Shown here: positions 8,788 through 41,086 of the stretch, piece by piece | Position numbering within the stretch: position 1 is the first letter of the stretch | Layout: each line of letters begins with the position of its first letter | Origin: a virus | Lineage: Duplodnaviria; Caudoviricetes | Virus record (IMG/VR): IMGVR_UViG_3300025128_000029 | Span: 1 to 62,337 of that record | DNA length: 62,337 bases | Reading direction: 5' to 3' (one strand) | Made by a program: the position numbers and the translations under genes | Notes under the pieces: model-generated | Seen by the model: the letters and a program-made list of their open reading frames with translations, nothing else | What the model was told of the DNA's origin: nothing | The model's database searches: none

Positions 8788-9801
8788 TTACTCGTACATG
8801 TATCTATTAATCGCTTCGTAGCCAACATGTAATGTTTTAGCTTCTGCAGCGAGTGCTTGGATACCAATATAAGGAATAAAGTCTTTATCATCAGTTAAAG
8901 CTGATCCGAGTGTTGTTCCAGCAGCAGTATCAACTCCACCACCTGTTGCAGTAGAAGTTAATGAATACTGTGTTCCATTTATAAAAGCTGCTGGCTTTCT
9001 ATCACTATCAATGATTATTTTTAAATGATAAATAGTGTTAGCAGCGACAGCTAAATTCAAATCACTTAAATAATCTGTACCACCTACACTATAAGCAAAA
9101 TGCCAATTAGCTTGAGTTGTGATTGTACCTAAATCATCGTCAGTAGCATATATAAAGTATGCTTGATCAGCATCAGTAGCTATGGTTGGAGTGTTTGTTA
9201 ACTTTAGTCCAGCCCAAATACAAGTGTTTGTAATAGCTGCTCCTGTTGTAATAAGACATTCCCACTCAGTTTGATTCTCAGAACCCCACTTAGTTCCTGT
9301 CCAAGCTGTTTGATTAGTATCTAAATGTGGAAGAATAATAATTTGATCATTATCTGCTCCATCAAGAGTAAGTTCGACACCACCTCGAGTAGCTGAAAAA
9401 GTAACATCATCAGTAGATGCGTTAGTTCCTAATATCTCAAAATTTTTATTTGCAGCTTGAGTTGCAGCAAGAGCAGAGGCATTATCAGCATCTGGATCTA
9501 TAATATTAACTGCATTAAGAGCTGGTCTTTGTAGAAAAAATTCTTCTAAATAAACTCTATCAATAGCCCTTGCTGTTCTATTAATACCCTTTGCTCCAGA
9601 AATAGTAACTGTATTATTAGCTGTTGTTGCTCCTGTAAGAGTTGTTGCTCCTGTTACAGCAAGTGTGCCACCTATAGAGGTATTACCTGTTGTAGAGGAA
9701 ATTGAAGTATGAGTTGTTTCTACACCTGTTGCATCGGCTGTAGAAATAACGGATAAACCACCCTCAGCTCGGACGGTTCCTTTAAAAGTTGTATTAGCCA
9801 T
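8788..9801 (-). CDS. capsid-associated fibre/decoration protein
   Basis: MANTTFKGTVRAEGG N-terminus typical of genes after this MCP type; C-terminal lectin-like beta domain. Confidence 0.55.
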   Translation of the reverse strand: MANTTFKGTVRAEGGLSVISTADATGVETTHTSISSTTGNTSIGGTLAVTGATTLTGATTANNTVTISGAKGINRTARAIDRVYLEEFFLQRPALNAVNIIDPDADNASALAATQAANKNFEILGTNASTDDVTFSATRGGVELTLDGADNDQIIILPHLDTNQTAWTGTKWGSENQTEWECLITTGAAITNTCIWAGLKLTNTPTIATDADQAYFIYATDDDLGTITTQANWHFAYSVGGTDYLSDLNLAVAANTIYHLKIIIDSDRKPAAFINGTQYSLTSTATGGGVDTAAGTTLGSALTDDKDFIPYIGIQALAAEAKTLHVGYEAINRYMYE

Positions 9802-9807
9802 ATATAT

Positions 9808-9852
9808 CTCCTATCGTGGCTTAGTCAATCACACCATTATGATTGTTAGGAA
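9808..9852 (-). ncRNA. structured element downstream of MCP, resembling the Mu-gpT-DE RNA motif
   Basis: minus strand UCCUA..CAAUCAU-AAUGGU-GUGAUUG..ACUAAGCCACGA..UAGGAG; outer stem sequesters the RBS of 8788..9801; family assignment from memory, not a search. Confidence 0.45.
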
Positions 9853-15799: not shown

Positions 15800-18225
15800 T
15801 ATTGTCCTGCCTTCCCATTTGCATTCTGGGCTTGCCTTTGTAATGCAATATTCGCTCTCATTTGTGCAATATCCTCTGTGCTATCTATTCGCTCTCTTTG
15901 TATCGCATTAGACTCTTGCATTTTTTGTTTATCCAACTGTAACTTAGCTTGGTCTTGCATAGCATCTTGTTGTTGTTCTTGGGCTTTTAAATCTAACTCT
16001 TGTTGTTTAATCTCTACTAACGGATCATCACTTTCTTTTGGTGGGTTCGCTTGTAAATATTCTGCCATTAATTCTGCTTGTACTTCTGAGACTCTATTCT
16101 CCATAGCTACTGGATCTGGTTGTTCCTGTTGTGCCATAGCTGGATCCATCGCTCCATCCATAGGTGGTTGTGCCATTTCCTGCTCGACCATTACTTTTGC
16201 TTTCAAAGCTAAATGTTCATATATATGTTTTTCTAATGTCATCAATACTGCTGGTTGTAATTTAGCTGTTTGACTCTGCATATATATCTGGTGTACTGCA
16301 ATATGTGCATCATGATTCTGTTCAGGAAACGCAGTTAATTTACTTTGTCCTATAGCAGCATCACTTGCTTCTTGGTTTTCTGTTCCAGGATCTTTTGGTT
16401 GTGGTTGTGGCTTAGGAGTTAATATCTGGTCAATATTACCTACACCTAAAGCTTCATACATACGTTTATAACTCTCATACATATTGTGCATTTCTGGTGC
16501 AGCTTGAGCCAATTTTAATTGTTCTTGAGCTAAAATTACTCTTTGCGACATACTAAAAATATTAGGGTCGCTTACTGGAAGCACATCAATACGTTGGTCA
16601 AAATCTTGTGCTTTTATCTGTTGGTCAACACCTGTTTCATAAGGATAAGGCACAGGGTCTTGTGCAAACTGTCTCGCAAGCATTTTTAATTCTATTTTCA
16701 TAGAAGCATGCAATCTCTTATGCACAGCATTAATTACTCTAGCACCACGCTCAAGTAAAGCGATTGTAGTTCCAACTGGCATCTCTTGTTTACCATCACC
16801 TACACCAATATCACTTGTGCCTACAAATTTTTGTGCAGCCGATACAACAAATCCCATCAATTCAAACAATGTTCTACTTGGCTCTTTATAGGGTAAAGGC
16901 ATTAATACTGAACGTAAATCTCCTCCTGGAACATCTACATCTCTAAATTCTCCAGGACTCAAAGGTTCACTATCATTTGCAATTCGCATTCCTCTTGCTT
17001 TAAATCCTGCTGGCATATTACTCAATGTACCTGCATCTATCAACTGTCTGAGGTTCGCTGTCGCTGTTCTACTTAAATTACCTATCATATGAATTAATCC
17101 AAAACCATAAAACCCTAATCCTGGAGTAAACTTATATTGCACAAAATGTTGAATCTTTTGCTTCTGTATATCGTCTGGCATAAAGTTACGGCGAACACTC
17201 AACACATCGCTTGTATCGCTACAAACTGTTACGATATATGGTAACTTTATGCCAGTCTCTTCACCCTGTTCATCTTTATCTGTATATTCTTCTATGTCTA
17301 AATAACAATGGCACTCGTACAATGTAAATTCTTCATCATAAGAATTACTGTTTGTACCCGAAATTTCATTATACTTATCTGTAATCTGGTCAGCATCTTC
17401 AGCAGAGCCACCTTTCATATCCACATTACTGTAAATTCCATTCCGTTGTTGTTTTTTGAGTTCATTCTCACTTATCTTTATAGTATGCGTTACTCTCTCA
17501 GCACTGCGTAAATCAGTTGCTGTGTAAGGTACTACTAATTCCTCAGCAGGAATAAACTTACTTACAGGTCTACCCAATACTTCATCGCGATAAACCTTTT
17601 TAAACGCACTACCAGCAAGACCTAGAAAATATAACATCTGATCAAACTCGGGCTCGTATTCTTCCATCTGGTACATAACCATATAATTCATGTACTCAGT
17701 TACTCGTTTTGCTTGTTTTTCAACTTCTGGGTTAGAAGTTCCTACTATATGAGCTCTCACTGGACCACCACTCGGCATCATCTCTTTATATGCCCCAGCC
17801 TGAAACTGAGTAACAGCTTCATTCAACATGGGGTGGATTACTCCAGTTGCACCCTCAAAAGGTTCACTACGTTGCTCATAACGTAAACCAAGTAAATCTA
17901 ATCCTTTTGTATAACCCTCTTCCCATTCGGAACGGCTATTTTTATCTTCTTCTACAGAATCTAATACATAACTAGAAACCTCACTCAAACTATCATCTGA
18001 TAAATTATCTACTAAATTATCAAAAAAGTTTTCTGGCTCACCACCCATAGGGGCTTCTTCATCGCCAAATTGTATTTCAACCCCACCCTCTTCATCTTCC
18101 TCAATCTCAAAATCTACCTGCTGAGCTTCCTGTGCCAGTAAATCATCTTCCTCTAAACTAAGGGTATCATTGGGGGCTTGTATAAGCGATCGGTCTACAT
18201 TACTTGGACGTGGTGAAATAGCCAT
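15799..18225 (-). CDS. portal protein
   Basis: 808 aa after TerL; PFEGATGVIHPMLNEAVTQFQA, GSAFKKVY, PGLGFYGFGLIH, LRQLIDAGTL. Confidence 0.9.
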   Translation of the reverse strand: MAISPRPSNVDRSLIQAPNDTLSLEEDDLLAQEAQQVDFEIEEDEEGGVEIQFGDEEAPMGGEPENFFDNLVDNLSDDSLSEVSSYVLDSVEEDKNSRSEWEEGYTKGLDLLGLRYEQRSEPFEGATGVIHPMLNEAVTQFQAGAYKEMMPSGGPVRAHIVGTSNPEVEKQAKRVTEYMNYMVMYQMEEYEPEFDQMLYFLGLAGSAFKKVYRDEVLGRPVSKFIPAEELVVPYTATDLRSAERVTHTIKISENELKKQQRNGIYSNVDMKGGSAEDADQITDKYNEISGTNSNSYDEEFTLYECHCYLDIEEYTDKDEQGEETGIKLPYIVTVCSDTSDVLSVRRNFMPDDIQKQKIQHFVQYKFTPGLGFYGFGLIHMIGNLSRTATANLRQLIDAGTLSNMPAGFKARGMRIANDSEPLSPGEFRDVDVPGGDLRSVLMPLPYKEPSRTLFELMGFVVSAAQKFVGTSDIGVGDGKQEMPVGTTIALLERGARVINAVHKRLHASMKIELKMLARQFAQDPVPYPYETGVDQQIKAQDFDQRIDVLPVSDPNIFSMSQRVILAQEQLKLAQAAPEMHNMYESYKRMYEALGVGNIDQILTPKPQPQPKDPGTENQEASDAAIGQSKLTAFPEQNHDAHIAVHQIYMQSQTAKLQPAVLMTLEKHIYEHLALKAKVMVEQEMAQPPMDGAMDPAMAQQEQPDPVAMENRVSEVQAELMAEYLQANPPKESDDPLVEIKQQELDLKAQEQQQDAMQDQAKLQLDKQKMQESNAIQRERIDSTEDIAQMRANIALQRQAQNANGKAGQ

Positions 18226-19709
18226 TAGTAATAAATCCTTTCTTTAGGTATTGGATCTTCATCTTGATAATCCTCTGGGTGGGTTATAAACCCTCCCTCT
18301 CTAAATCTTCTCAAAGCTTGTGACACTGTATCAACATAATCGTCGTGTTCTCCTGCAGGAAATGCTGCACACTCTTCAACAACATCTTCAGCCCATGATG
18401 TATCTGGACACCATACTAACCCACTTTCGAACAAAGGTGCAATAGAATTTACTCGACTTATCTTATCATTTCCTCTACTAGGAGAATAATTAGTGACGGG
18501 GATCCCCATCTGCCTTAGTTCTTGGGTCAATGGCATACCCGAAGCTTTTGCCTCAATTAAAACCATTTCTGGCTCCCAATACTTATATTCTTCCAAAGCT
18601 TTCCTTCTTAACTCTGGAAAATCCCATCTACCCTTTCTCGCATCAACAAGAATAATGTTCGGAGGTTCACCCTCCTTTGGGTAAAAAACACCCCATGTTG
18701 TTATCGCACTATAATCTGCTGATTCCTGTTTACTAAATGCTGTATCATAACTCTGCATTACATATTCCAAAGCAGGTAACTCTTTCTTCTCCCACTTCTT
18801 CCACCAATCACGCTTAATTATCGCACTGACATCACTCGTCGGATTCTGCTGCCACTGAGCTTCCCACTTACCAACTGACAAACTTCCCTTTACGGCAAGT
18901 AAATCTTCCTTCTTCCAAAACTCACCCCATAAAGGTTCATCATTCGGCATCAACGCAGGAAACTCTATTATCTCCCATTTATCAGCCAGTATATCTCTCG
19001 CTTGCTGTCTTATCAATTTACCAGTTAAATCATTCTCAGCCCATCGCGTCATCACAATTACTATCGTTCCTCCTGGCTGCAATCTCTGTCTCGGACCAGA
19101 AGTGTACCATTCATAAGCATGCTCTAAAGCCGTCGGACTTAAAGCATCTTGCTCAGAATGGGGGTCATCAATAATTAATAAATCTGCACCTCGACCAGTA
19201 ACAGCTCCTCCTACTCCAGCAGCAAAATACTCTCCACCCTTATCCGTCTCCCAACGACCTGCTGCTTGGGAATCAACTCGTAAAGCAACCTTTGGAAAAA
19301 TTTTTAAATATTCTTGGCTATTCATCAAGTTACGAGTCTTACGTCCAAAACGAAAAGCAAGCTCAGCAGTATGCGTTGTCTGCATAATCTTCAACATAGG
19401 GTTCCTACCCATTAACCATGCTGGAAGCATAAAACTCGCAAATTCACTTTTAGTATGTCTAGGGGGCATGTTTATTATAACACGCTTTAAATCTCCCGTC
19501 GCCACTCGATTAAACTTTTCTGCCATAAGCTTATGGTGGCGTCCATGGATAAATCCATCCCAAGTCTGCTCCACAAAAGTTAAAAAATCCTTTTGGGCTA
19601 ACTCGGAATCTTCCATCTCCTTCGCTCTCTGCATTAAGTTCGCAAAATGCTTTAAACGATCCTCTGGTATTAACTCAATATCCATAGCCATTATTTTTTT
19701 ATATATCAA
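18225..19709 (-). CDS. terL: terminase large subunit
   Basis: INMPPRHTKS Walker A, LLIIDDP Walker B, SYDTAF and HDDYVD nuclease motifs; true start may be 19691. Confidence 0.95.
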   Translation of the reverse strand: MIYKKIMAMDIELIPEDRLKHFANLMQRAKEMEDSELAQKDFLTFVEQTWDGFIHGRHHKLMAEKFNRVATGDLKRVIINMPPRHTKSEFASFMLPAWLMGRNPMLKIMQTTHTAELAFRFGRKTRNLMNSQEYLKIFPKVALRVDSQAAGRWETDKGGEYFAAGVGGAVTGRGADLLIIDDPHSEQDALSPTALEHAYEWYTSGPRQRLQPGGTIVIVMTRWAENDLTGKLIRQQARDILADKWEIIEFPALMPNDEPLWGEFWKKEDLLAVKGSLSVGKWEAQWQQNPTSDVSAIIKRDWWKKWEKKELPALEYVMQSYDTAFSKQESADYSAITTWGVFYPKEGEPPNIILVDARKGRWDFPELRRKALEEYKYWEPEMVLIEAKASGMPLTQELRQMGIPVTNYSPSRGNDKISRVNSIAPLFESGLVWCPDTSWAEDVVEECAAFPAGEHDDYVDTVSQALRRFREGGFITHPEDYQDEDPIPKERIYY

Positions 19710-19772: not shown

Positions 19773-19859
19773 TTTTTTGACGTCACAAATTTTGCGAGGA
19801 ACATGGCAAGCCCCCTTGATAGGGCTTGCCTAAAAGTCTCTAGGGGGGGCGTCAAAAAA
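19773..19859. other. dyad-symmetric non-coding element, candidate genome terminus/packaging site
   Basis: TTTTTTGACG (19773-82) / CGTCAAAAAA (19850-59) around a centred GGCAAGCCC-N8-GGGCTTGCC hairpin (19805-30); G6/G7 runs nearby. Confidence 0.4.
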
Positions 19860-19885
19860 CCCTGTTAACCTATAGGCTAACAGGG
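19854..19885 (-). terminator. intrinsic terminator of 19903..20358
   Basis: minus strand CCCTGTTAGCCT-AT-AGGTTAACAGGG-TTTTTT. Confidence 0.75.
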
Positions 19886-19902
19886 CTAGGGGGTAACCTA
19901 AG

Positions 19903-20358
19903 TTACTTAGTTGTTGTTGGCATAGTGCTAACAAGTTTAATAAAAGGTGTACCCCAACTGCTACTACTAGGGCTATAACCACCATTTAACAGGGCTAATA
20001 AACAATTAGGTTTTTTACTGCTATGCCCTAAAGGTTTGCCAACTGCTAGGCTAGTACTAACAAGGTTACAAACCTTACCTGTTGTTTTGTTTTTAACACC
20101 ATGCAACATTGCATTTTGTATTATTGCCCTAACCCCATTAGGTTTACCACCATACCCAAAAGGTACAGGGTTAGCCTGTTGTAGTTTGCAATTAGGTAAT
20201 GGTACTATTTGTGCGTTAGCCATACTACCACCACAATTATTATTAATAAAAGCCCATAAACTAGCATAGGTTACCTCGTTGCCTGTATGTGTTAAAGTTG
20301 CGTAAGTTGTTGTTGGTGCTGTATTAGGTGCTACCTTACCTTTTGTTGTATTTTGCAT
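19903..20358 (-). CDS. hypothetical basic protein, Asp-free paralog of 20616..21059
   Basis: shared PVPFGYGG.P.GVR, PLGHS.KKP.CL.AL..GGYSPSS..W.TP.IKLV; own RBS (AAAAAGGGG) and terminator. Confidence 0.85.
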   Translation of the reverse strand: MQNTTKGKVAPNTAPTTTYATLTHTGNEVTYASLWAFINNNCGGSMANAQIVPLPNCKLQQANPVPFGYGGKPNGVRAIIQNAMLHGVKNKTTGKVCNLVSTSLAVGKPLGHSSKKPNCLLALLNGGYSPSSSSWGTPFIKLVSTMPTTTK

Positions 20359-20390
20359 TTTATACCCCTTTTTGGTTAATGCGTTAAAGT

Positions 20391-20426
20391 TGCTATTATA
20401 TAAACATTTATTTGTAATTTTTGCAA
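20391..20426 (-). promoter_or_regulatory. putative promoter of 19903..20358
   Basis: TATAAT at 20400-20395 (TATAATAGCA, also at 25180-25171); TTGCAA upstream with non-ideal spacing. Confidence 0.5.
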
Positions 20427-20470
20427 AACCAAAATAGTAGTTCTCTATATATAACCCCTATATTAATGCT

Positions 20471-20570
20471 TATGATTAGACCTCTCTCCATCCATCCTCT
20501 CATCGGGGAAATCATCGGGAATCCTCATCCTCTGGTCGGGGAAAATCCTCACGAATCATCGGAAGGCAAT
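20471..20570. repeat. TC/GA-dense degenerate repeat spacer
   Basis: ATCCTC / ATCGGG(G)AA units; 26 TC+GA in 100 nt by hand count. Confidence 0.75.
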
Positions 20571-20573
20571 GTC

Positions 20574-20605
20574 AAAAAAAGAGGGGACAGTCGCCTGTCG
20601 CCCTC
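20574..20605 (-). terminator. intrinsic terminator of 20616..21059
   Basis: minus strand GAGGG-C-GACAG-GCGA-CTGTC-CCCTC-TTTTTTT. Confidence 0.8.
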
Positions 20606-20615
20606 GTGTTAGATG

Positions 20616-21059
20616 TTAAGCTTTGACTACGAGCTTGATGTATGGAGTCATCCAGTATTTGCTGGACGGTGAGTATCCTCCGTGCATGAGAGCATGTAGA
20701 CAAGTAGGCTTTTTGCGACTGTGTCCAAGAGGAGCAGCTTTATTGAGTATGGTTTTAAGGGACATGTCCTTGTCCTTGCCGACACCGAATAATAACCAAT
20801 CCTGAATCATTTGTCGGACCCCTCCAGGCTGACCTCCGTAACCGAATGGGACAGGCTTGTCACTTTTTAAGTCACAGTTATCAAGTGGAACAACCACTAC
20901 GTTAGATTCTTGACCTCCTGCATGCTCCTGGACAAACTTCCAGATATCATTGTAGGATAGCTCCTTGTCAGTCACTTTTAACTCAACTGATTTTACAGTT
21001 TTAATTGGAGCGTCTAAGGTTAATGATGCCTTAGTCATCTTTTTAGTAGTTTTAGTCAT
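20616..21059 (-). CDS. hypothetical protein, normal-composition paralog of 19903..20358
   Basis: same motifs; TCGTAGAAAGGGG leader; 9 Asp + 4 Glu. Confidence 0.85.
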   Translation of the reverse strand: MTKTTKKMTKASLTLDAPIKTVKSVELKVTDKELSYNDIWKFVQEHAGGQESNVVVVPLDNCDLKSDKPVPFGYGGQPGGVRQMIQDWLLFGVGKDKDMSLKTILNKAAPLGHSRKKPTCLHALMHGGYSPSSKYWMTPYIKLVVKA

Positions 21060-21112
21060 TGTAATCCCCTTTCTACGAGATTGTTAAGTTAATAGCTGTT
21101 TGCTATGATTAA

Positions 21113-21141
21113 AGAATAGCAATTAATTTGTCTAGTTACAA
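21113..21141 (-). promoter_or_regulatory. sigma70-like promoter
   Basis: TTGTAA-17 nt-TATTCT with TG extension. Confidence 0.6.
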
Positions 21142-21187
21142 GTCTATTATTGTCCTATTTATTCGTTTTTTATCCTCAAATTAGACA

Positions 21188-21298
21188 ATCAATCTGGCGT
21201 CATCATCTTTCTTCTTCGGCGTCGTCAATCATCCTCTTTCCTCGGTGAAAAGAAACGATGACGCGAGGATGAAAGACGATAGAGGAAGATTGATGAGA
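21188..21298. other. bipartite TC-rich then GA-rich non-coding element
   Basis: 15 TC/0 GA in 21188-21243, then 15 GA/0 TC in 21247-21298. Confidence 0.8.
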
Positions 21299-21300
21299 AA

Positions 21301-21732
21301 CTAATCGTTGTCAGGACGACCCGATGATGATAGAATATGATTGATAATGCCCGTCCAGTCGTACGGGATTCTCGTCTCAAAATCAGGGATCAAGTCATCC
21401 TCCCTCCTCGGTGATTCTGTCCACTGTCTAGCTCGCCAACCCCCAAATAATTTGAGCGACGAGGAAGAGAGATGATGAACCAAGTTCCAGACATGTCCTG
21501 ATTGCGAAGAATATTGAGTTTGCCAGAGAATTTGGTGAGGAGACAAATTGATGGACTTTAATGACTTTAACCTGTGGACTTTCAATTCTAACCAAAAGGC
21601 ATGACCATCAACTATACCATGCAGATCTGGAACTCCAGGAATAGCCCACGACTCAAGACGTGTCCAAAACACCCCTTGAGCCTTTGTGTTGTCGCGTAGA
21701 TTATGCCACAGTTTGGACTCAGGCTTTTTCAT
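21301..21732 (-). CDS. VRR-NUC / PD-(D/E)XK nuclease (Holliday junction resolvase-like)
   Basis: PESKLW...RLES...GVPDL...FWLELK...LSPHQ. Confidence 0.75.
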   Translation of the reverse strand: MKKPESKLWHNLRDNTKAQGVFWTRLESWAIPGVPDLHGIVDGHAFWLELKVHRLKSLKSINLSPHQILWQTQYSSQSGHVWNLVHHLSSSSLKLFGGWRARQWTESPRREDDLIPDFETRIPYDWTGIINHILSSSGRPDND

Positions 21733-21977: not shown

Positions 21978-21982
21978 CAGTT

Positions 21983-22436
21983 AATCCTTTCTACGATTAA
22001 TTAAGTTATATTTAATAATAGCATAAAATACGTCTAGGTGTTTAATTTATTATCAAGAGTTCTCCGTGTCACGGAAGTAGTCTACTTGTACTTTAATGGC
22101 GATGCCGTCTTGTTCGGCTCCATTCCTCATTTCTTTTATAACACTAATAGCCTCGTCTAAGCTTTTCTGGTCAACAACTTTTGTAAACCAACTGATAAAG
22201 TCGCCTCCCTCTTCAATGTTATACAAAAAAGCATAGACTTCCTGAGGGGAAGACATTGTTATTACTAACCGACCATCTTCTCCCCACTGCTCAGTATAAG
22301 TACTAATATTATCAATAACAACAGGGTTGATATAGTAGGTGCTATGACCTGATTCTTTGATTAAAGTGTTAAACAACATGATAAATCCTTTCTACGATTA
22401 ATTTGTTTATACTTATATAATAGCATAAAATACGTC
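21983..22436. repeat. direct repeat of promoter/RBS cassette flanking 22053..22379
   Basis: AATCCTTTCTACGATTAATT at 21983 and 22384; ATAATAGCATAAAATACGTC at 22015 and 22417. Confidence 0.85.
22053..22379 (-). CDS. hypothetical early protein
   Basis: TCGTAGAAAGG leader; 108 aa. Confidence 0.6.
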   Translation of the reverse strand: MLFNTLIKESGHSTYYINPVVIDNISTYTEQWGEDGRLVITMSSPQEVYAFLYNIEEGGDFISWFTKVVDQKSLDEAISVIKEMRNGAEQDGIAIKVQVDYFRDTENS

Positions 22437-22983
22437 AAGTGGTGTCTTTTATTACCTTACTTTCTCCCTCTATGACAAGGTTATCTTCAGTAAAAGATTT
22501 GAGTGCAGGAAACTCTTCCTGGATTCTCTTAATTTCTTTCATGACCTCGTCGCGATTCATCGAGTCAATCTTTCCATGCAGAATCTCTTTGCGATCAATA
22601 TAAAGTCCGGCAGCTTGACCTCGGGACTTCTCTGCCGCGACTGCTGCTGCGAAATTCCCTCCTGTCATAGCTTGATCTCTGATCTCGGCTAATTTTTTGA
22701 CGTGTCCTTCAAATGAGACTTCATATTTTTTAGACAGCTCAGCTTTAAGCTCTTTGATTCGGGCGACTACTGCTGGATATCGGGTTCCGTTGAGGAGTTG
22801 CGATGCTATTGCATGAGCTGATGCGACAGAGTATCCTGCTCTTATCGCTGCTTCAGTCTGGCTTATGTCTTCAGTTACATAAATCTTAGCGAACTCTTCT
22901 TGTTTGGGAGTGATCCCCTTCTCCGATCGGGGATTGCCTACAATATCTAATGTGGGCTTATGTGTCTTTTTTGCTAATGCCAT
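22435..22983 (-). CDS. terS: terminase small subunit
   Basis: ITPKQEEFAKIYV...TEAAIRAGYS...ASQLL...AEKSRGQAAGLY; start MALAKK after AGGAG. Confidence 0.8.
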   Translation of the reverse strand: MALAKKTHKPTLDIVGNPRSEKGITPKQEEFAKIYVTEDISQTEAAIRAGYSVASAHAIASQLLNGTRYPAVVARIKELKAELSKKYEVSFEGHVKKLAEIRDQAMTGGNFAAAVAAEKSRGQAAGLYIDRKEILHGKIDSMNRDEVMKEIKRIQEEFPALKSFTEDNLVIEGESKVIKDTT

Positions 22984-23058
22984 AATTATCTCCTGTACTT
23001 TACATAATAGGAGCAGACTAAGAATTTGCAAAGAATTTTTTTATCTCCGATAACAGTG

Positions 23059-33555: not shown

Positions 33556-33844
33556 TTAATCTTACCTCTGCCTCCACTAATAACAAGTACCTCCTTAAAT
33601 CTTGTATATCATCTAATATACCCTCTGGGCGAGTATCTTCCTTTATTGCTTGGAAAACATCGTAATTAACTTTTGTTACTTGGTTCTCAAGCCTATCCCA
33701 TTTACGAGCAAGCATCATAAAAGCACCTACACCACCTCGCTTTTTCCAACTATCACCGTAAGATTGCTCAGCTTCATGTAACCCTTTTACATCTTCGTTT
33801 GCTAATGTATTTACTTTTTGTATTATCTTACTTCTAGTACTCAC
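33518..33844 (-). CDS. nucleotide-modification-associated domain 1 (Nmad1/DUF1599-like, MazG-fold)
   Basis: SYGDSWKKRGGVGAFMMLARKWDRL...DDIQDLRRYLLL; GTGA overlap suggests GTG start at 33844. Confidence 0.65.
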   Translation of the reverse strand: MSTRSKIIQKVNTLANEDVKGLHEAEQSYGDSWKKRGGVGAFMMLARKWDRLENQVTKVNYDVFQAIKEDTRPEGILDDIQDLRRYLLLVEAEVRLNGITRPEDKSSL

Positions 33845-34824
33845 TTCAGTCTCCTCTCTAACCATTCTATACAAGCCCTCCTCCATGCTCTATCATTTAT
33901 TCTTGATGCAAACTTTAATGCTGTAAGTAGTTCTTTCTTTTTCCAAGCTTTCCATGACTTCATCATGGGGGTAGCTGTGTCTGTGAGATAAGTATTAGTT
34001 AATCCTTCTATAGTATAATCATCAAACCATTTGTACAACTCAGAATCAAAATTATGAGCATTATCTATTAATGGTGGCGAATTATAACTTAACCCATCTT
34101 CAGCTAATAAAAGATAAGGTTCATAATCGGGCTGTAGGGAATATAAGTTTAATTTTTCTAATACATCTGTATAAACATGAAGATTATTACTTATTTGATA
34201 ATAAGTACCAATTTTATTATCTGTCATGAAAGCCATATATTCTAACAAAAAAGACATATGTACTGCATTTGCTCCATAAGCACCCCAGATCATATCATTA
34301 CTTCTGTTTACCACAGTCATATTAAGATAACCTTTTCTAGCCCAAAAAAAGACTTGTGTATTACAAGGATAATCTACTCCTGTGTTTGTTGAAGTTAGAT
34401 CAGCATAAGGATCCCACATACCTACTACAACTCTACGATCATTAGGGTAACTTAACAATCTGTTTTTAGCTATGTTTAATTGGTCTACACCAAAGTGCTT
34501 CCTCCAGCGATGTCCGTATGCACCATGAAAGGTAATACCGTCATCGCTATAATTATTCATTCTTCCGTTAAATTGGCTAATCCACTCTACATCATTACGA
34601 CCTGCTAACATCCATAAGCTTTCCATAAAATGGAAATATGGGTTAGCATCACGTTGAGGGTAAAACAATACTCTTTCCCAACTGTGTGTGTATTCTGTGC
34701 AAACAGGCATTGGAAACTCTAAAGCTTTACCATTTCTAGTATCTACCTCTACCCCTGTGTTTTGGATAACCTGTATGCCGTGATATAAAGCCTCACTAAC
34801 ACCTCTACTATATATATTGTACAA
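33841..34824 (-). CDS. dUMP hydroxymethylase (thymidylate synthase superfamily)
   Basis: TRNG, ANPYFHFMESLWML.GRND, AYG.RWR, catalytic DYPCN, RSNDMIWGAYGANAVH with Asn (dUMP-type) specificity residue, NLHVY. Confidence 0.8.
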   Translation of the reverse strand: MYNIYSRGVSEALYHGIQVIQNTGVEVDTRNGKALEFPMPVCTEYTHSWERVLFYPQRDANPYFHFMESLWMLAGRNDVEWISQFNGRMNNYSDDGITFHGAYGHRWRKHFGVDQLNIAKNRLLSYPNDRRVVVGMWDPYADLTSTNTGVDYPCNTQVFFWARKGYLNMTVVNRSNDMIWGAYGANAVHMSFLLEYMAFMTDNKIGTYYQISNNLHVYTDVLEKLNLYSLQPDYEPYLLLAEDGLSYNSPPLIDNAHNFDSELYKWFDDYTIEGLTNTYLTDTATPMMKSWKAWKKKELLTALKFASRINDRAWRRACIEWLERRLK

Positions 34825-34909: not shown

Positions 34910-35905
34910 CTACTCAATGTTTAAGAACTGCTTGTATTGGCTACCTATTATTATAGGGTCGTGTAATTTAAGAGCATTATACCCATTTTCTCTAATTGAT
35001 GGTATAGAATCAGAGTAAGCCCCATTGAGTATAGTAGCCAACTCTTCTGCAGAGCCAACAGCAAAACAGTTATAATCAGGCTTCATATCATCAGGTTCGT
35101 CAAGTATCCACTTATTATGTATAATAGGAATACATCCTGCATTCCAAGATTCTAAAGCTGTGTATTGTGTTCCACCACCATCACCCACTATTTGCGTCAT
35201 ATCTACATTAAACACATAATCTTGCATTAACTTAAACGCAAAATCATTTTCTCTAGGGTAATGGGCTTTAGATTGTACCCACTCTGGATACTTTGGCACA
35301 ATTTTAAACCGAGTAAAAATTCTGTTTTCAAAACCTCTTATATTTATTTTCTTATCTTCAGTTAATAACCTATTAGCATCTAATAATATTTCAGTGTGCT
35401 TATCAAAATCAATACGCGAAGTACTTACAGCACCCTTTCTATCAAGGTTAGTATGTTTAGGAAAAGGTGTATAAGGGTGACGGATAAAGGTTGCCCCCTC
35501 AAAAGTTCTTGCACCTATTTGTCTAATAACAACACACCTTTTAGGGTCTAAATCAACAGGTAAGTTTTTTAATTCAGTTGGGTCATGAACAACGATACTT
35601 GCACCTATATCGTACAATAGCTGTGTTTCTTCTTTAAACTGCTTTGCCCCAGCGACAACTAACTTAATCGTTTCTTTGTACTCGTTGTTTACAATAGTTT
35701 TACGATTCCTAGCCTCAGCCATAGAAATATTTCTATAATGTTTACCATAACCAAACTCACGGCTTTTGCGTTCACTCTTTGGTCTTATCTTAAACAGGGT
35801 ACACTTAACTCCTACTGCTTCAAGGGCTTCCATCAAATGATTAGTATAAGTAACCCAACCTCCATACGGATTAGGGCTTAAATAAAATAAATCTACATGT
35901 GTCAT
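34910..35905 (-). CDS. GT-B fold glycosyltransferase (GT4-like), putative DNA glycosyltransferase
   Basis: PYGGWVTYTNHL N-terminal loop, VVHDP, TSRIDFDKH, GGGTQYTALESWNAGCIPI; ATGA overlap gives start 35905. Confidence 0.7.
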   Translation of the reverse strand: MTHVDLFYLSPNPYGGWVTYTNHLMEALEAVGVKCTLFKIRPKSERKSREFGYGKHYRNISMAEARNRKTIVNNEYKETIKLVVAGAKQFKEETQLLYDIGASIVVHDPTELKNLPVDLDPKRCVVIRQIGARTFEGATFIRHPYTPFPKHTNLDRKGAVSTSRIDFDKHTEILLDANRLLTEDKKINIRGFENRIFTRFKIVPKYPEWVQSKAHYPRENDFAFKLMQDYVFNVDMTQIVGDGGGTQYTALESWNAGCIPIIHNKWILDEPDDMKPDYNCFAVGSAEELATILNGAYSDSIPSIRENGYNALKLHDPIIIGSQYKQFLNIE

Positions 35906-36816
35906 GCTACAGGTCCTTCCAATGTTTTCCATTTGTTGTAATTTAAAAGTGAACTAAGATGGGCATCGTACTTACTACGAGGTGTACCTTGCCCTAATCT
36001 AACTCTTTCATACTTATCCCACTCACACAGGCTATGCTCTATAGTTCGCATATCTACGTTTTCAATGGAGACTACATTTCTAGTACCCTGTGCAATATCT
36101 AATACTTTTTTCATTTCTATATTAGACTGAACAGCAGTTAGTCCTTTAGTAAGGGGTCTATCGTATAACCTGTTTAAACCTCGTTTTGCTCCTGGACCTG
36201 CGTTCGCCCAAGTAAAACGGTCTGTCGCCTCGTCCAGTATGCGTGTGTAGTTGAGATCGGTAACCACTTCGTAAGACATAAAGCCCCCTCCACCCCACCC
36301 ACGATAGGCAGACATCGCATGGTGTAAGGCTTGTAACGACTGAGTGTTGGTCGCAATCTCGGCAAGTTTTTCTTTGCTTTCCCAAATAGGGGTGAGGAAA
36401 TGGTCAACTACAACTTCTCCTTTAGGTAACTTTAACCCTTGATTAGTTATAATATATGCTCCTGTAAAAGTTCGCAACTTCTTAGCCAATCGTTCGGCGA
36501 TTAATTGCTTAGTATATTCAGGATCCCACTTTGAAGCCCAACCATGAGCCTCAGCAAACTCAGTTGTACCAACCATTCTAAACAAACAACAGTTAAATAT
36601 TATTTCGCCATCGGGTTTATTATGGTTTGGGTTTGTCCAGTTCTGACGCATCCATATAGTAACCTTATCGTTTTCACGGAAAGGGTTTGTAAATTTATAC
36701 TCTTGGAGTATTTTATCTTTTGTAAAGGGAGGTGGATCACCAATTACTTTTTTTCGGTAAATAGCATGTCGCTCATTTATCCAATAAAAGAACCTTTCTA
36801 AGTTCTCTATGTTCAC
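35902..36816 (-). CDS. aGPT-Pplase1-like DNA base hypermodification protein (HhH glycosylase-derived)
   Basis: FFYWINERHAIY.KK..G.PPP.T.D.ILQ.YKFTN.FRENDKVT, FTGAYII, FMSYEVVTDL, ANAGPGAKRGL, EH.LCEWDKY.R. Confidence 0.8.
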   Translation of the reverse strand: MNIENLERFFYWINERHAIYRKKVIGDPPPFTKDKILQEYKFTNPFRENDKVTIWMRQNWTNPNHNKPDGEIIFNCCLFRMVGTTEFAEAHGWASKWDPEYTKQLIAERLAKKLRTFTGAYIITNQGLKLPKGEVVVDHFLTPIWESKEKLAEIATNTQSLQALHHAMSAYRGWGGGGFMSYEVVTDLNYTRILDEATDRFTWANAGPGAKRGLNRLYDRPLTKGLTAVQSNIEMKKVLDIAQGTRNVVSIENVDMRTIEHSLCEWDKYERVRLGQGTPRSKYDAHLSSLLNYNKWKTLEGPVA

Positions 36817-40441: not shown

Positions 40442-41086
40442 TTACTTTTCTTTCTTCGTTTTCCAAAAATACTCATCAGTATCACCTAATCTAGTATTAT
40501 TACCATTCTCTACCTGATAAAAAACTGTACTCACCTTAAAGTCGGGATTGATAGGTTTTTCAGGGGTCAAACTATTATCATATACTCGCATTCTATTATT
40601 AGGGTATAAGCAAAACTGTCCGTTTTCTAACTCTAGTAAGTTAAAAGATTTATGCTCCTCGGGATTCTCACTTGTACTATAATCAATCGAGTCGGGATCG
40701 GCATGATAGTTATCTATCGTACAAACATAATATCCTTTTTGTATGCCAAAATCTCTGGTTAATATTTCAAAATCCATACTACCGATAAATTGTTTGTGTA
40801 TAGCTGTAACATTGTAATCCATACAATTCCAAAACTGTAAGTTGTTAAGGGGCATGTCGGGTTTTGGTGGCTTTTTAGAAGCAACAAAAGCACTGATTGG
40901 TAACTTATCAAACAAAGCACCATAATCAGGTAAATAAGTTTCAAAGTAAAATGCTCTCCCAGGAATAGATTTGCATGAAGTCCATATTCCAGCAACATAC
41001 TCGCCATGTCCATCATTATGGTCTCTTAAATATTCTTTTCTAACCCAAACTTTTTGTGCTGGAAGATTACATATCAACTCTGCCAT
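40442..41086 (-). CDS. conserved phage hypothetical protein
   Basis: VRKEYL.D...GHGE...KSIPGRA..FE...KLPISAF...EHKSFN...PNNR. Confidence 0.65.
   Translation of the reverse strand: MAELICNLPAQKVWVRKEYLRDHNDGHGEYVAGIWTSCKSIPGRAFYFETYLPDYGALFDKLPISAFVASKKPPKPDMPLNNLQFWNCMDYNVTAIHKQFIGSMDFEILTRDFGIQKGYYVCTIDNYHADPDSIDYSTSENPEEHKSFNLLELENGQFCLYPNNRMRVYDNSLTPEKPINPDFKVSTVFYQVENGNNTRLGDTDEYFWKTKKEK

Follow-up and report, generated by a model that had tools for sequence, protein, structure and literature searches.

A transcription unit free of GA and TC encodes a nearly acid-free protein in a Caudoviricetes genome

A two-base ban over one transcription unit

Why should a phage keep two adjacent copies of one gene and strip one of them of nearly every acidic residue? 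The question is raised by the complete virus record IMGVR_UViG_3300025128_000029 (IMG/VR; Duplodnaviria, Caudoviricetes), a genome of 62,337 bp with nearly all genes on the - strand, which was analyzed in its entirety and is termed the window. It carries two open reading frames (ORFs) in tandem on the - strand: ORF A (19903..20358; 151 amino acids (aa), no Asp and one Glu, isoelectric point (pI) 9.94) and its normally composed paralog ORF B (20616..21059; 147 aa, nine Asp and four Glu, pI 9.54). A first-pass annotation made from the letters of the DNA had described them as tandem paralogs with shared motifs, which BLASTP bore out with 63/129 identical residues (49%; E 7e-44). Its contrast in acidic residues likewise stood, and the alignment confirmed that the residues of A facing the acidic positions of B are G, S, N, M, P, K, and A. 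The answer begins in the DNA, where one transcription unit is kept free of GA and TC from promoter to terminator, forcing a protein without Asp and Glu.

The GA/TC-free island was delimited on both strands at 19854..20441 from the positions of all GA and TC dinucleotides. Its sole exception is the Glu28 codon of A (TC on the + strand at 20276-20277), correctly singled out in the first-pass annotation as the only TC of the zone. The + strand lacks GA over a 656-nucleotide (nt) gap (19818..20474), compared to 225 nt for the second-longest GA gap of the window, and carries a single TC, at 20276, between 19852 and 20442; about 23 GA and 47 TC (about 70 GA/TC) would be expected over 654 nt. A scan of the window for the ten strand-symmetric dinucleotide pairs gave the GA/TC gap as the only outlier.

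The ban is also visible in the choice of codons. All 12 Ser codons of A are AGY (42% AGY in the genome), GGA is absent (34% of the genome's Gly codons), and the lone Arg is encoded by AGG. Synonymous resampling, with the A protein fixed and its codons redrawn from the phage's own usage, yielded 11.0 +/- 2.6 GA and 16.8 +/- 3.1 TC compared to the observed 1 and 0, and none of the 20000 draws matched. That redrawn codons never match, together with AGY-only Ser and the lack of GGA, indicates that the acid-free protein follows from the ban on nucleotide words and not the reverse. The resampling and the comparison of variants described below effectively refute three other explanations: selection on the protein against acidity, mere chance, and acquisition of the region from a genome of different composition. 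The proteins of the A lineage are generally acid-poor, with three Asp and three Glu even where TC is normal, but a fixed protein would still be expected to carry 11 GA and 17 TC, the non-coding flanks are free of both words as well, and no other 400-nt stretch of the window genome approaches such scarcity.

The limits of the island coincide with those of a transcription unit and its promoter, starting approximately 15 nt ahead of A's -35 box and stopping at the last base of the terminator T run. The sigma-70-like promoter of A (20395..20426, - strand) comprises TTGCAA (20426..20421), a 17 nt spacer, and TTATAT with an upstream TG, overlapping TATAAT. It was read by eye and was not listed by the consensus promoter scan, and it is conserved in relatives. 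Its -35 box TTGCAA avoids the GA present in the consensus TTGACA. The terminator of A (19853..19885, - strand) consists of a palindrome with 13-nt arms (19860-19885) followed by the T run at whose end the island stops exactly. A terminator-like hairpin after B (20586..20599, - strand; motif scan) and a promoter-like site of B (21134-21105, - strand; consensus scan) complete a set of predicted signals that agrees with the first-pass claim of a separate promoter and terminator for each gene. Transcription start sites are predictions throughout. The 70 nt upstream of these predicted starts contained 0-4 GA/TC for A-type promoters (16 lineages) compared to 5-19 for B-type promoters (10 lineages), and 0/16 A-type -35 boxes equaled TTGACA. 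The constraint is in the DNA, is strand-symmetric, and reaches the non-coding flanks.

Recurrence and maintenance in related phages

A phmmer search of 1.84 billion representatives retrieved just 66 relatives of the paralogs, many of them without Asp and without Glu. Loci were gathered with two protein queries and a degenerate ALLNGGYSPSS pattern (any Ser codon; 60 loci), and a family hidden Markov model (HMM) applied to them returned 135 ORFs encoding 91 unique proteins; the pattern favors A-like copies, with B-like copies picked up later in the same loci. Both GA and TC were absent from the genes of 15/91 unique proteins. The free zone extended beyond 14 of these 15 genes by 40-146 nt upstream and 49-158 nt downstream, with only 11 nt downstream in L102. 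Coding-strand TC was absent in 27/91, with 0-6 GA, and mostly every GA sat in an Asp or Glu codon; in L088, L046, and L099 the number of GA exceeded that of acidic residues by one or two. The lineage L016/L017 had no GA and 6-8 TC, certain copies were GA-poor only (GA 7-9, TC 30-34), and the remainder were ordinary.

The lone Glu of A had been proposed in the first-pass annotation to be indispensable. The acidic residues kept longest in purged family members occupy two alignment positions, and that of Glu28 is one of them, making it the acidic residue most often retained in purged relatives. It is nevertheless absent from all 15 strictly GA/TC-free unique proteins, such that its frequent retention stands and its indispensability does not.

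In a quick tree of 82 proteins, whose topology may be distorted by the unusual composition of the acid-free rows, the normal first copies formed one well-supported clade and the purged copies many deep branches. The purged and normal copies of the same phage were mutual nearest relatives in the clade of L058, L065, and L100, and the free state needed at least four changes on this tree.

Ten related genomes were scanned whole for all ten strand-symmetric dinucleotide pairs. Five carried a strict GA/TC island (G000, G004, G005, G006, and G009; longest gaps 424-829 nt), two a near-strict island (G007 and G008), and one a partial island (G003). The scan revealed no GA/TC island in the complete genome G001 or in G002 (72% complete), where the longest gaps were 58 and 69 nt. 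Each of the eight island-bearing genomes had one island, always on a member of the A/B family, and this held in G006 and G009 where the acid-free copy lies 4-7 kb from the normal copy. Gap length times density was 28.9-78.9 for GA/TC in the strict and near-strict genomes, compared to at most 16 for any other pair. The compositional asymmetry between paired copies, which the first-pass annotation expected to recur in relatives, was found in 8/10 whole genomes.

Several variations accompany the island in particular lineages. Three phased A-tracts (agttaaaaaa every ~10-11 nt) stand just upstream of A-type promoters in L017, L055, L060, and L061, and a conserved CCCCC..GAGA element lies between the A-type terminator and the terminase gene in most lineages. 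The island of L046, L075, L088, and L090 contains, upstream of the A-type gene, a short ORF whose predicted product is a hydrophobic ~19-aa peptide (MWLLIFAI..LIKK), and that of L019 an extra stretch of ~220 nt with a second MQNTK start.

Comparison of close relatives showed that the island is maintained by continuing selection on DNA. The full A region was available in five of them (L004, L006, L008, L009, and L010), with an identity to the window of 97-100% in B and only 87-97% in A. The island was kept in 5/5, interrupted solely by the Glu codon (GAG or GAA). Pairs of variants differed by 19-35.5 synonymous and 3.5-21.5 non-synonymous changes (ratio of non-synonymous to synonymous rates, dN/dS, 0.04-0.22). 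A GA or TC would be created by 102/306 possible synonymous single changes and by none of those among the variants, and the chance of creating none over 35 synonymous changes is about 7e-7. A 35-38 nt insertion in the 5' untranslated region of the relatives and compensatory changes in their terminator stems were also GA/TC-free. The gaps, the resampling, and these variants together support the first-pass view that a constraint at the DNA level sets the composition of the protein.

Selection on the transcript offers a different account, in which a messenger RNA (mRNA) without GA and UC would resist a dinucleotide-preferring endoribonuclease, whether of the HEPN, Cas13, or toxin type from the host or a shut-off RNase of the phage. 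The exact stop at the terminator would suit such an escape, as would the G003 mRNA strand with no GA and 6-8 UC, which shows the two motifs to be separable, and the copies that are GA-poor only. It nevertheless requires two independent bans that happen to be mutual reverse complements. The ban is also not limited to the transcript, affecting both strands and entering predicted non-transcribed promoter DNA by ~50 nt or more, where the -35 boxes avoid the consensus GA. Banned words that are mutual reverse complements and a ban that reaches the promoter argue for a DNA-level rather than an RNA-level cause, and escape from an RNase is highly unlikely.

Possible thymine hypermodification and competing causes

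A candidate for such a DNA-level cause is encoded in the window. A homolog of the 5-hydroxymethyldeoxyuridine (5-hmdU) DNA kinase was identified at 35902..36816 (- strand; PF18723, E 2.3e-46) and may be what hypermodifies thymine in a sequence-specific manner. A thymidylate-synthase-like gene at 33841..34824 (- strand; PF00303, E 2.6e-20; phrog_5131, E 2.6e-104) codes for a putative dUMP hydroxymethylase. Its product has Asn at a position that we take to specify uracil, and homology does not separate hydroxymethylase from methylase. Co-occurrence of the paralogs with an hmdU pathway, which the first-pass annotation had put forward as a check, was thus found in the window. PF18723 was present in 14/15 related records, the sole miss being a 46%-complete fragment; all these records come from one phage group, and the association does not count as independent support.

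The gene between the kinase and the thymidylate-synthase-like gene (window 34910..35932, - strand; L029:2058-3347) was swapped among relatives. In G000, G003, and G005 this neighbor of the kinase was an ORF of 340-364 aa with no family assignment, and its place was taken in G001, G002, and G004 by a GT4-like glycosyltransferase of 420-435 aa; G003 additionally carried an FkbM-type methyltransferase. Pfam gave no match for the 340-aa and 213-aa ORFs flanking the kinase of the window. The swapped genes suggest, from their predicted families, different hypermodification chemistries. The type of transferase beside the kinase does not track the island and was rejected as its correlate, as was the kinase itself, which is present with and without the island.

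In the hmdU-kinase phages M6, ViI, phiW-14, and SP10, thymine is modified in part only, apparently in TG and TC contexts (Lee et al. 2018, PMC5889632; Lee et al. 2021, PMC8989533; Flodman et al. 2019, PMC6449724). The resistant restriction sites of M6, ViI, and phiW-14 share TG/TC, and a preference of the kinase for these contexts has been proposed (Flodman et al. 2019, PMC6449724). TG and CA occur in the island at a normal level (45 and 33 observed compared to 40 and 44 expected), and the context in these phages would be TC alone if the link to modification holds.

Restriction sites of the window are consistent with protection that depends on thymine. GGCC was observed 0 times compared to 41 expected, GCGC 0 compared to 30, and CCGG 1 compared to 20. 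These three sites contain no T and cannot be shielded by thymine modification, such that their virtual absence fits T-dependent protection. The same scarcity was noted in G004, and the island-less G001 avoids them and TCGA much less. Palindrome statistics for 4-mers and 6-mers with or without GA/TC gave no clear difference in avoidance.

The reading that we favor, tentatively and at somewhat less than even confidence, is that hypermodification falls on the T of TC, that the island remains unmodified and keeps A always transcribable, and that B is the unconstrained copy. In this scheme, T would be replaced by 5-hmdU in the phage DNA and the 5-hmdU DNA kinase pathway would hypermodify only the T in 5'-TC-3', a specificity deduced from the banned words. 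An island without TC on either strand would then never receive the bulky adduct, however modified the remaining genome might be, and RNA polymerase with a sigma-70-type factor could bind and read the A unit from fully modified DNA, the template being either the genome as it enters the cell or the heavily modified DNA present late in infection. A would in this way ensure that a small basic protein, which probably binds nucleic acids, is still produced when modified DNA serves poorly as a template. B, in its unusually TC-rich DNA, would be expressed from fresh replicas before hypermodification reaches them. The purged copy would come at a cost in protein quality, and the unconstrained copy would be retained as part of a division of labor.

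A stronger version, close to the bootstrap role proposed in the first-pass annotation, is doubtful. It holds that hypermodification is a genome-wide transcription lock and that A is a motif-free "key" gene read first from incoming DNA, possibly because it lies beside the packaging genes at the end that is injected first. The encoded small basic protein would represent a new fold family, bind DNA or the polymerase, and open the rest of the genome, and the paralog would take over on unmodified replicas. Contigs from RNA libraries (metatranscriptome runs X16, X17, X18, and X20) contained short pieces of A and B at a depth of 2-5, which is too thin for conclusions on transcription, timing, or level.

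Several observations weigh against hypermodification at TC as the cause. The kinase and both paralogs occur without an island in G001 and G002, and the kinase-adjacent genes differ among the island genomes (the 340-aa ORF or the GT4-like glycosyltransferase). The G003 gene has no GA but retains 6-8 TC, and its promoter contains GA/TC. TCGA was observed 36 times compared to 126 expected (0.29), although modified TC should protect it. The characterized hmdU-kinase phage M6 has no dinucleotide-free zone, with a top value of gap times density of 10.4, and such islands are therefore not a general need of kinase phages. All other phage genes, including those for replication, are full of GA/TC and yet must be transcribed, so that the modification would be no absolute block.

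The same DNA-level facts (gaps, resampling, and variants) are accommodated by a target-free antidote, in which the island dodges a host or competitor activity at a motif of TC/GA level and A is a counter-measure that must act before the genome is safe. Candidate attackers are a TC-preferring double-stranded DNA cytosine deaminase, DarT that ADP-ribosylates T in TNTC, and a nuclease cutting at hypermodified T. An island that is always on one protein family, the strong predicted promoter of A's own, the phased A-tracts before such promoters, and the presence or absence of the island among close relatives, as in an arms race, would all suit this account. Nevertheless, the entire GA/TC-full genome enters the cell, where shielding one gene would help only with stepwise entry; no known defense has been shown to act on a bare dinucleotide; and A and B resemble no known inhibitor in sequence and fold searches. 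An antidote is accordingly an unlikely explanation.

The window can be set beside known systems of thymine hypermodification, of target avoidance, or of a modified base that obstructs transcription. Like the kinase phages M6, ViI, phiW-14, and SP10, it encodes a thymidylate-synthase-like protein and a 5-hmdU DNA kinase homolog; it differs from them in its kinase-adjacent transferase genes and in the island, a motif-free feature that is absent from M6 and not described for the group. The first-step-transfer DNA of T5 is free of restriction sites and, like other cases of restriction-site avoidance, resembles the island as a phage stretch kept target-free to act before the genome is protected. 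The banned word of the window is in contrast a dinucleotide on both strands, covers exactly one transcription unit, and reshapes the composition of a protein, and a position in the leading DNA is only conjectured. ACA-less mRNAs resist MazF and similarly escape a sequence-specific activity because its short target is missing, which restricts their codons, whereas the ban in the window is strand-symmetric and present in promoter DNA, pointing to double-stranded DNA and not to RNA. Base J (glucosyl-hmU) is a transcription barrier in kinetoplastids, and this bulky hmU-derived base able to stop RNA polymerase makes a block by hypermodified T plausible. Base J is however eukaryotic, and a block of bacterial RNA polymerase by a phage modification would be an analogy only.

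The logic of target avoidance is thus already known from restriction-site avoidance and motif-less mRNAs. Known cases of target avoidance concern restriction sites of 4-8 bases, compared to a two-base word here that costs the protein two amino acids. Full-text literature searches (excluding supplements, which may hold kinase-phage motif data) gave no report of a hypermodified phage with an island that lacks a motif or the modification. The extension of a two-base ban to an entire transcription unit, the resulting change in the amino-acid alphabet, the occurrence of the ban in many lineages, and its tie to one uncharacterized protein family in hypermodifying phages appear to be new.

If hypermodification at TC is the cause, the motif at which uncultured marine phages modify their DNA (TC) could be read off the sequence alone, and hypermodified DNA would carry a transcriptional cost that phages engineer around, with A/B as a protein handling that cost. 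Under the stronger, doubtful version with a transcription lock, an epigenetic code would have decided, time and again across lineages, which amino acids a protein may use (no Asp, no Glu). The dinucleotide-free island is in addition a simple genomic signature for finding like arrangements elsewhere, and its genes supply natural functional proteins built without acidic residues.

Protein fold and surroundings of the island

The A/B proteins had no match in Pfam, PHROGs, NCBIfam, or a PDB sequence profile search, and tblastn against 50,697 phage records found no functional homolog; the ESM Atlas returned unnamed viral clusters only. A structure model of B based on a 47-sequence alignment was confident (predicted local distance difference test, pLDDT, 91.7) and displayed an N-terminus that is disordered and rich in Lys/Thr, together with a compact domain of the alpha/beta type. 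Foldseek of this model against PDB and BFVD yielded nothing at E <= 0.001. In the exhaustive VIA-align search Z did not exceed 5.0; the matches at Z 3-4 included many chains of winged-helix or RRE-like type, aligned to residues 55-147, and are weak and unspecific. A role of A and B in nucleic-acid binding is a reasonable guess.

The DNA next to the island is unusually rich in the words that the island lacks. In its GA/TC density the spacer between B and A (20442..20612) ranks near the top of the window (30 GA/TC in 120 nt, z 5.2), has no TA or TT in 20477..20610, and carries CATCCTCT..TCGGGGA repeats. A second rich region upstream of B (21100..21400; up to 50 per 200 nt, mean 21.5, standard deviation (sd) 4.7) contains TCATC/GATGA inverted repeats and overlaps the 3' end of a nuclease-like ORF (21301..21732, - strand; phrog_2165). 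GA/TC-rich clusters directly upstream of the island had z > 0 in 12/13 lineages and z >= 1.9 in 8/13, scores that are pushed upward by the rule used to set the island boundary. Coding-strand TC per 100 nt was 9.95 in the nuclease-like ORF, 6.76 in B, and 6.37 in the small terminase gene, the three highest values among real genes (mean 3.57, sd 1.39). The nuclease-like ORF beside B has the top density, at a z of about +4.6.

These clusters could be binding sites in a scheme of self-immunity, in which GA/TC, or the modified T of TC, would be the site where the A/B protein or its complex binds, silences, modifies, or cuts DNA, and a target-free A would escape its own product. The tie of the island to the A/B family and to no other gene in 8/8 island-bearing genomes is consistent with this, as are the basic proteins (pI 9.5-9.9), the weak winged-helix-like structural matches (Z 3-5), the rich clusters upstream of the island in most lineages, and the place of B and the neighboring nuclease-like gene among the most TC-rich genes. 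The fold matches are however not specific, DNA binding is presumed, and a dinucleotide is unusually short as the target of a DNA-binding protein, which leaves self-immunity distinctly unlikely.

The island lies between the two terminase genes identified by Pfam, the large subunit at 18225..19709 and the small subunit at 22435..23031, together with the nuclease-like ORF, ORF B, and ORF A, all on the - strand. Promoter/5' untranslated modules (TAGAC/TTGACG..TGCTATT.., then ..TCGTAGAAAGG) are repeated at 21978..22052, 22380..22434, and 21060..21140. They precede B and the two small genes upstream of B, as if the interval between the terminase genes held a series of small cassettes, each complete in itself. 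Contig ends vary among the related records.

Other Pfam matches in the window included an SU10-like portal and adaptors and a family A DNA polymerase. The terminase had a distant likeness at the DNA level to those of the Pelagibacter phages HTVC023P and HTVC027P (64% identity). A gene of 214 aa (40442..41086, - strand; phrog_3704, with a "ferredoxin" label and no Pfam match) was present in 7/7 genomes with a strict or near-strict island and in 0/3 others, and its structure model had a pLDDT of 36.6. It was dropped as a correlate of the island, being also found in G018, where the second copy has normal TC, and with 2116 hits in marine data. The A/B region had no match in Rfam, and a tRNA search found none. 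Elsewhere in the window, Rfam identified a Mu-gpT-DE RNA (RF03012) at 9799..9851 (- strand), just downstream of the capsid gene, with 50 bits compared to a gathering score of 49.

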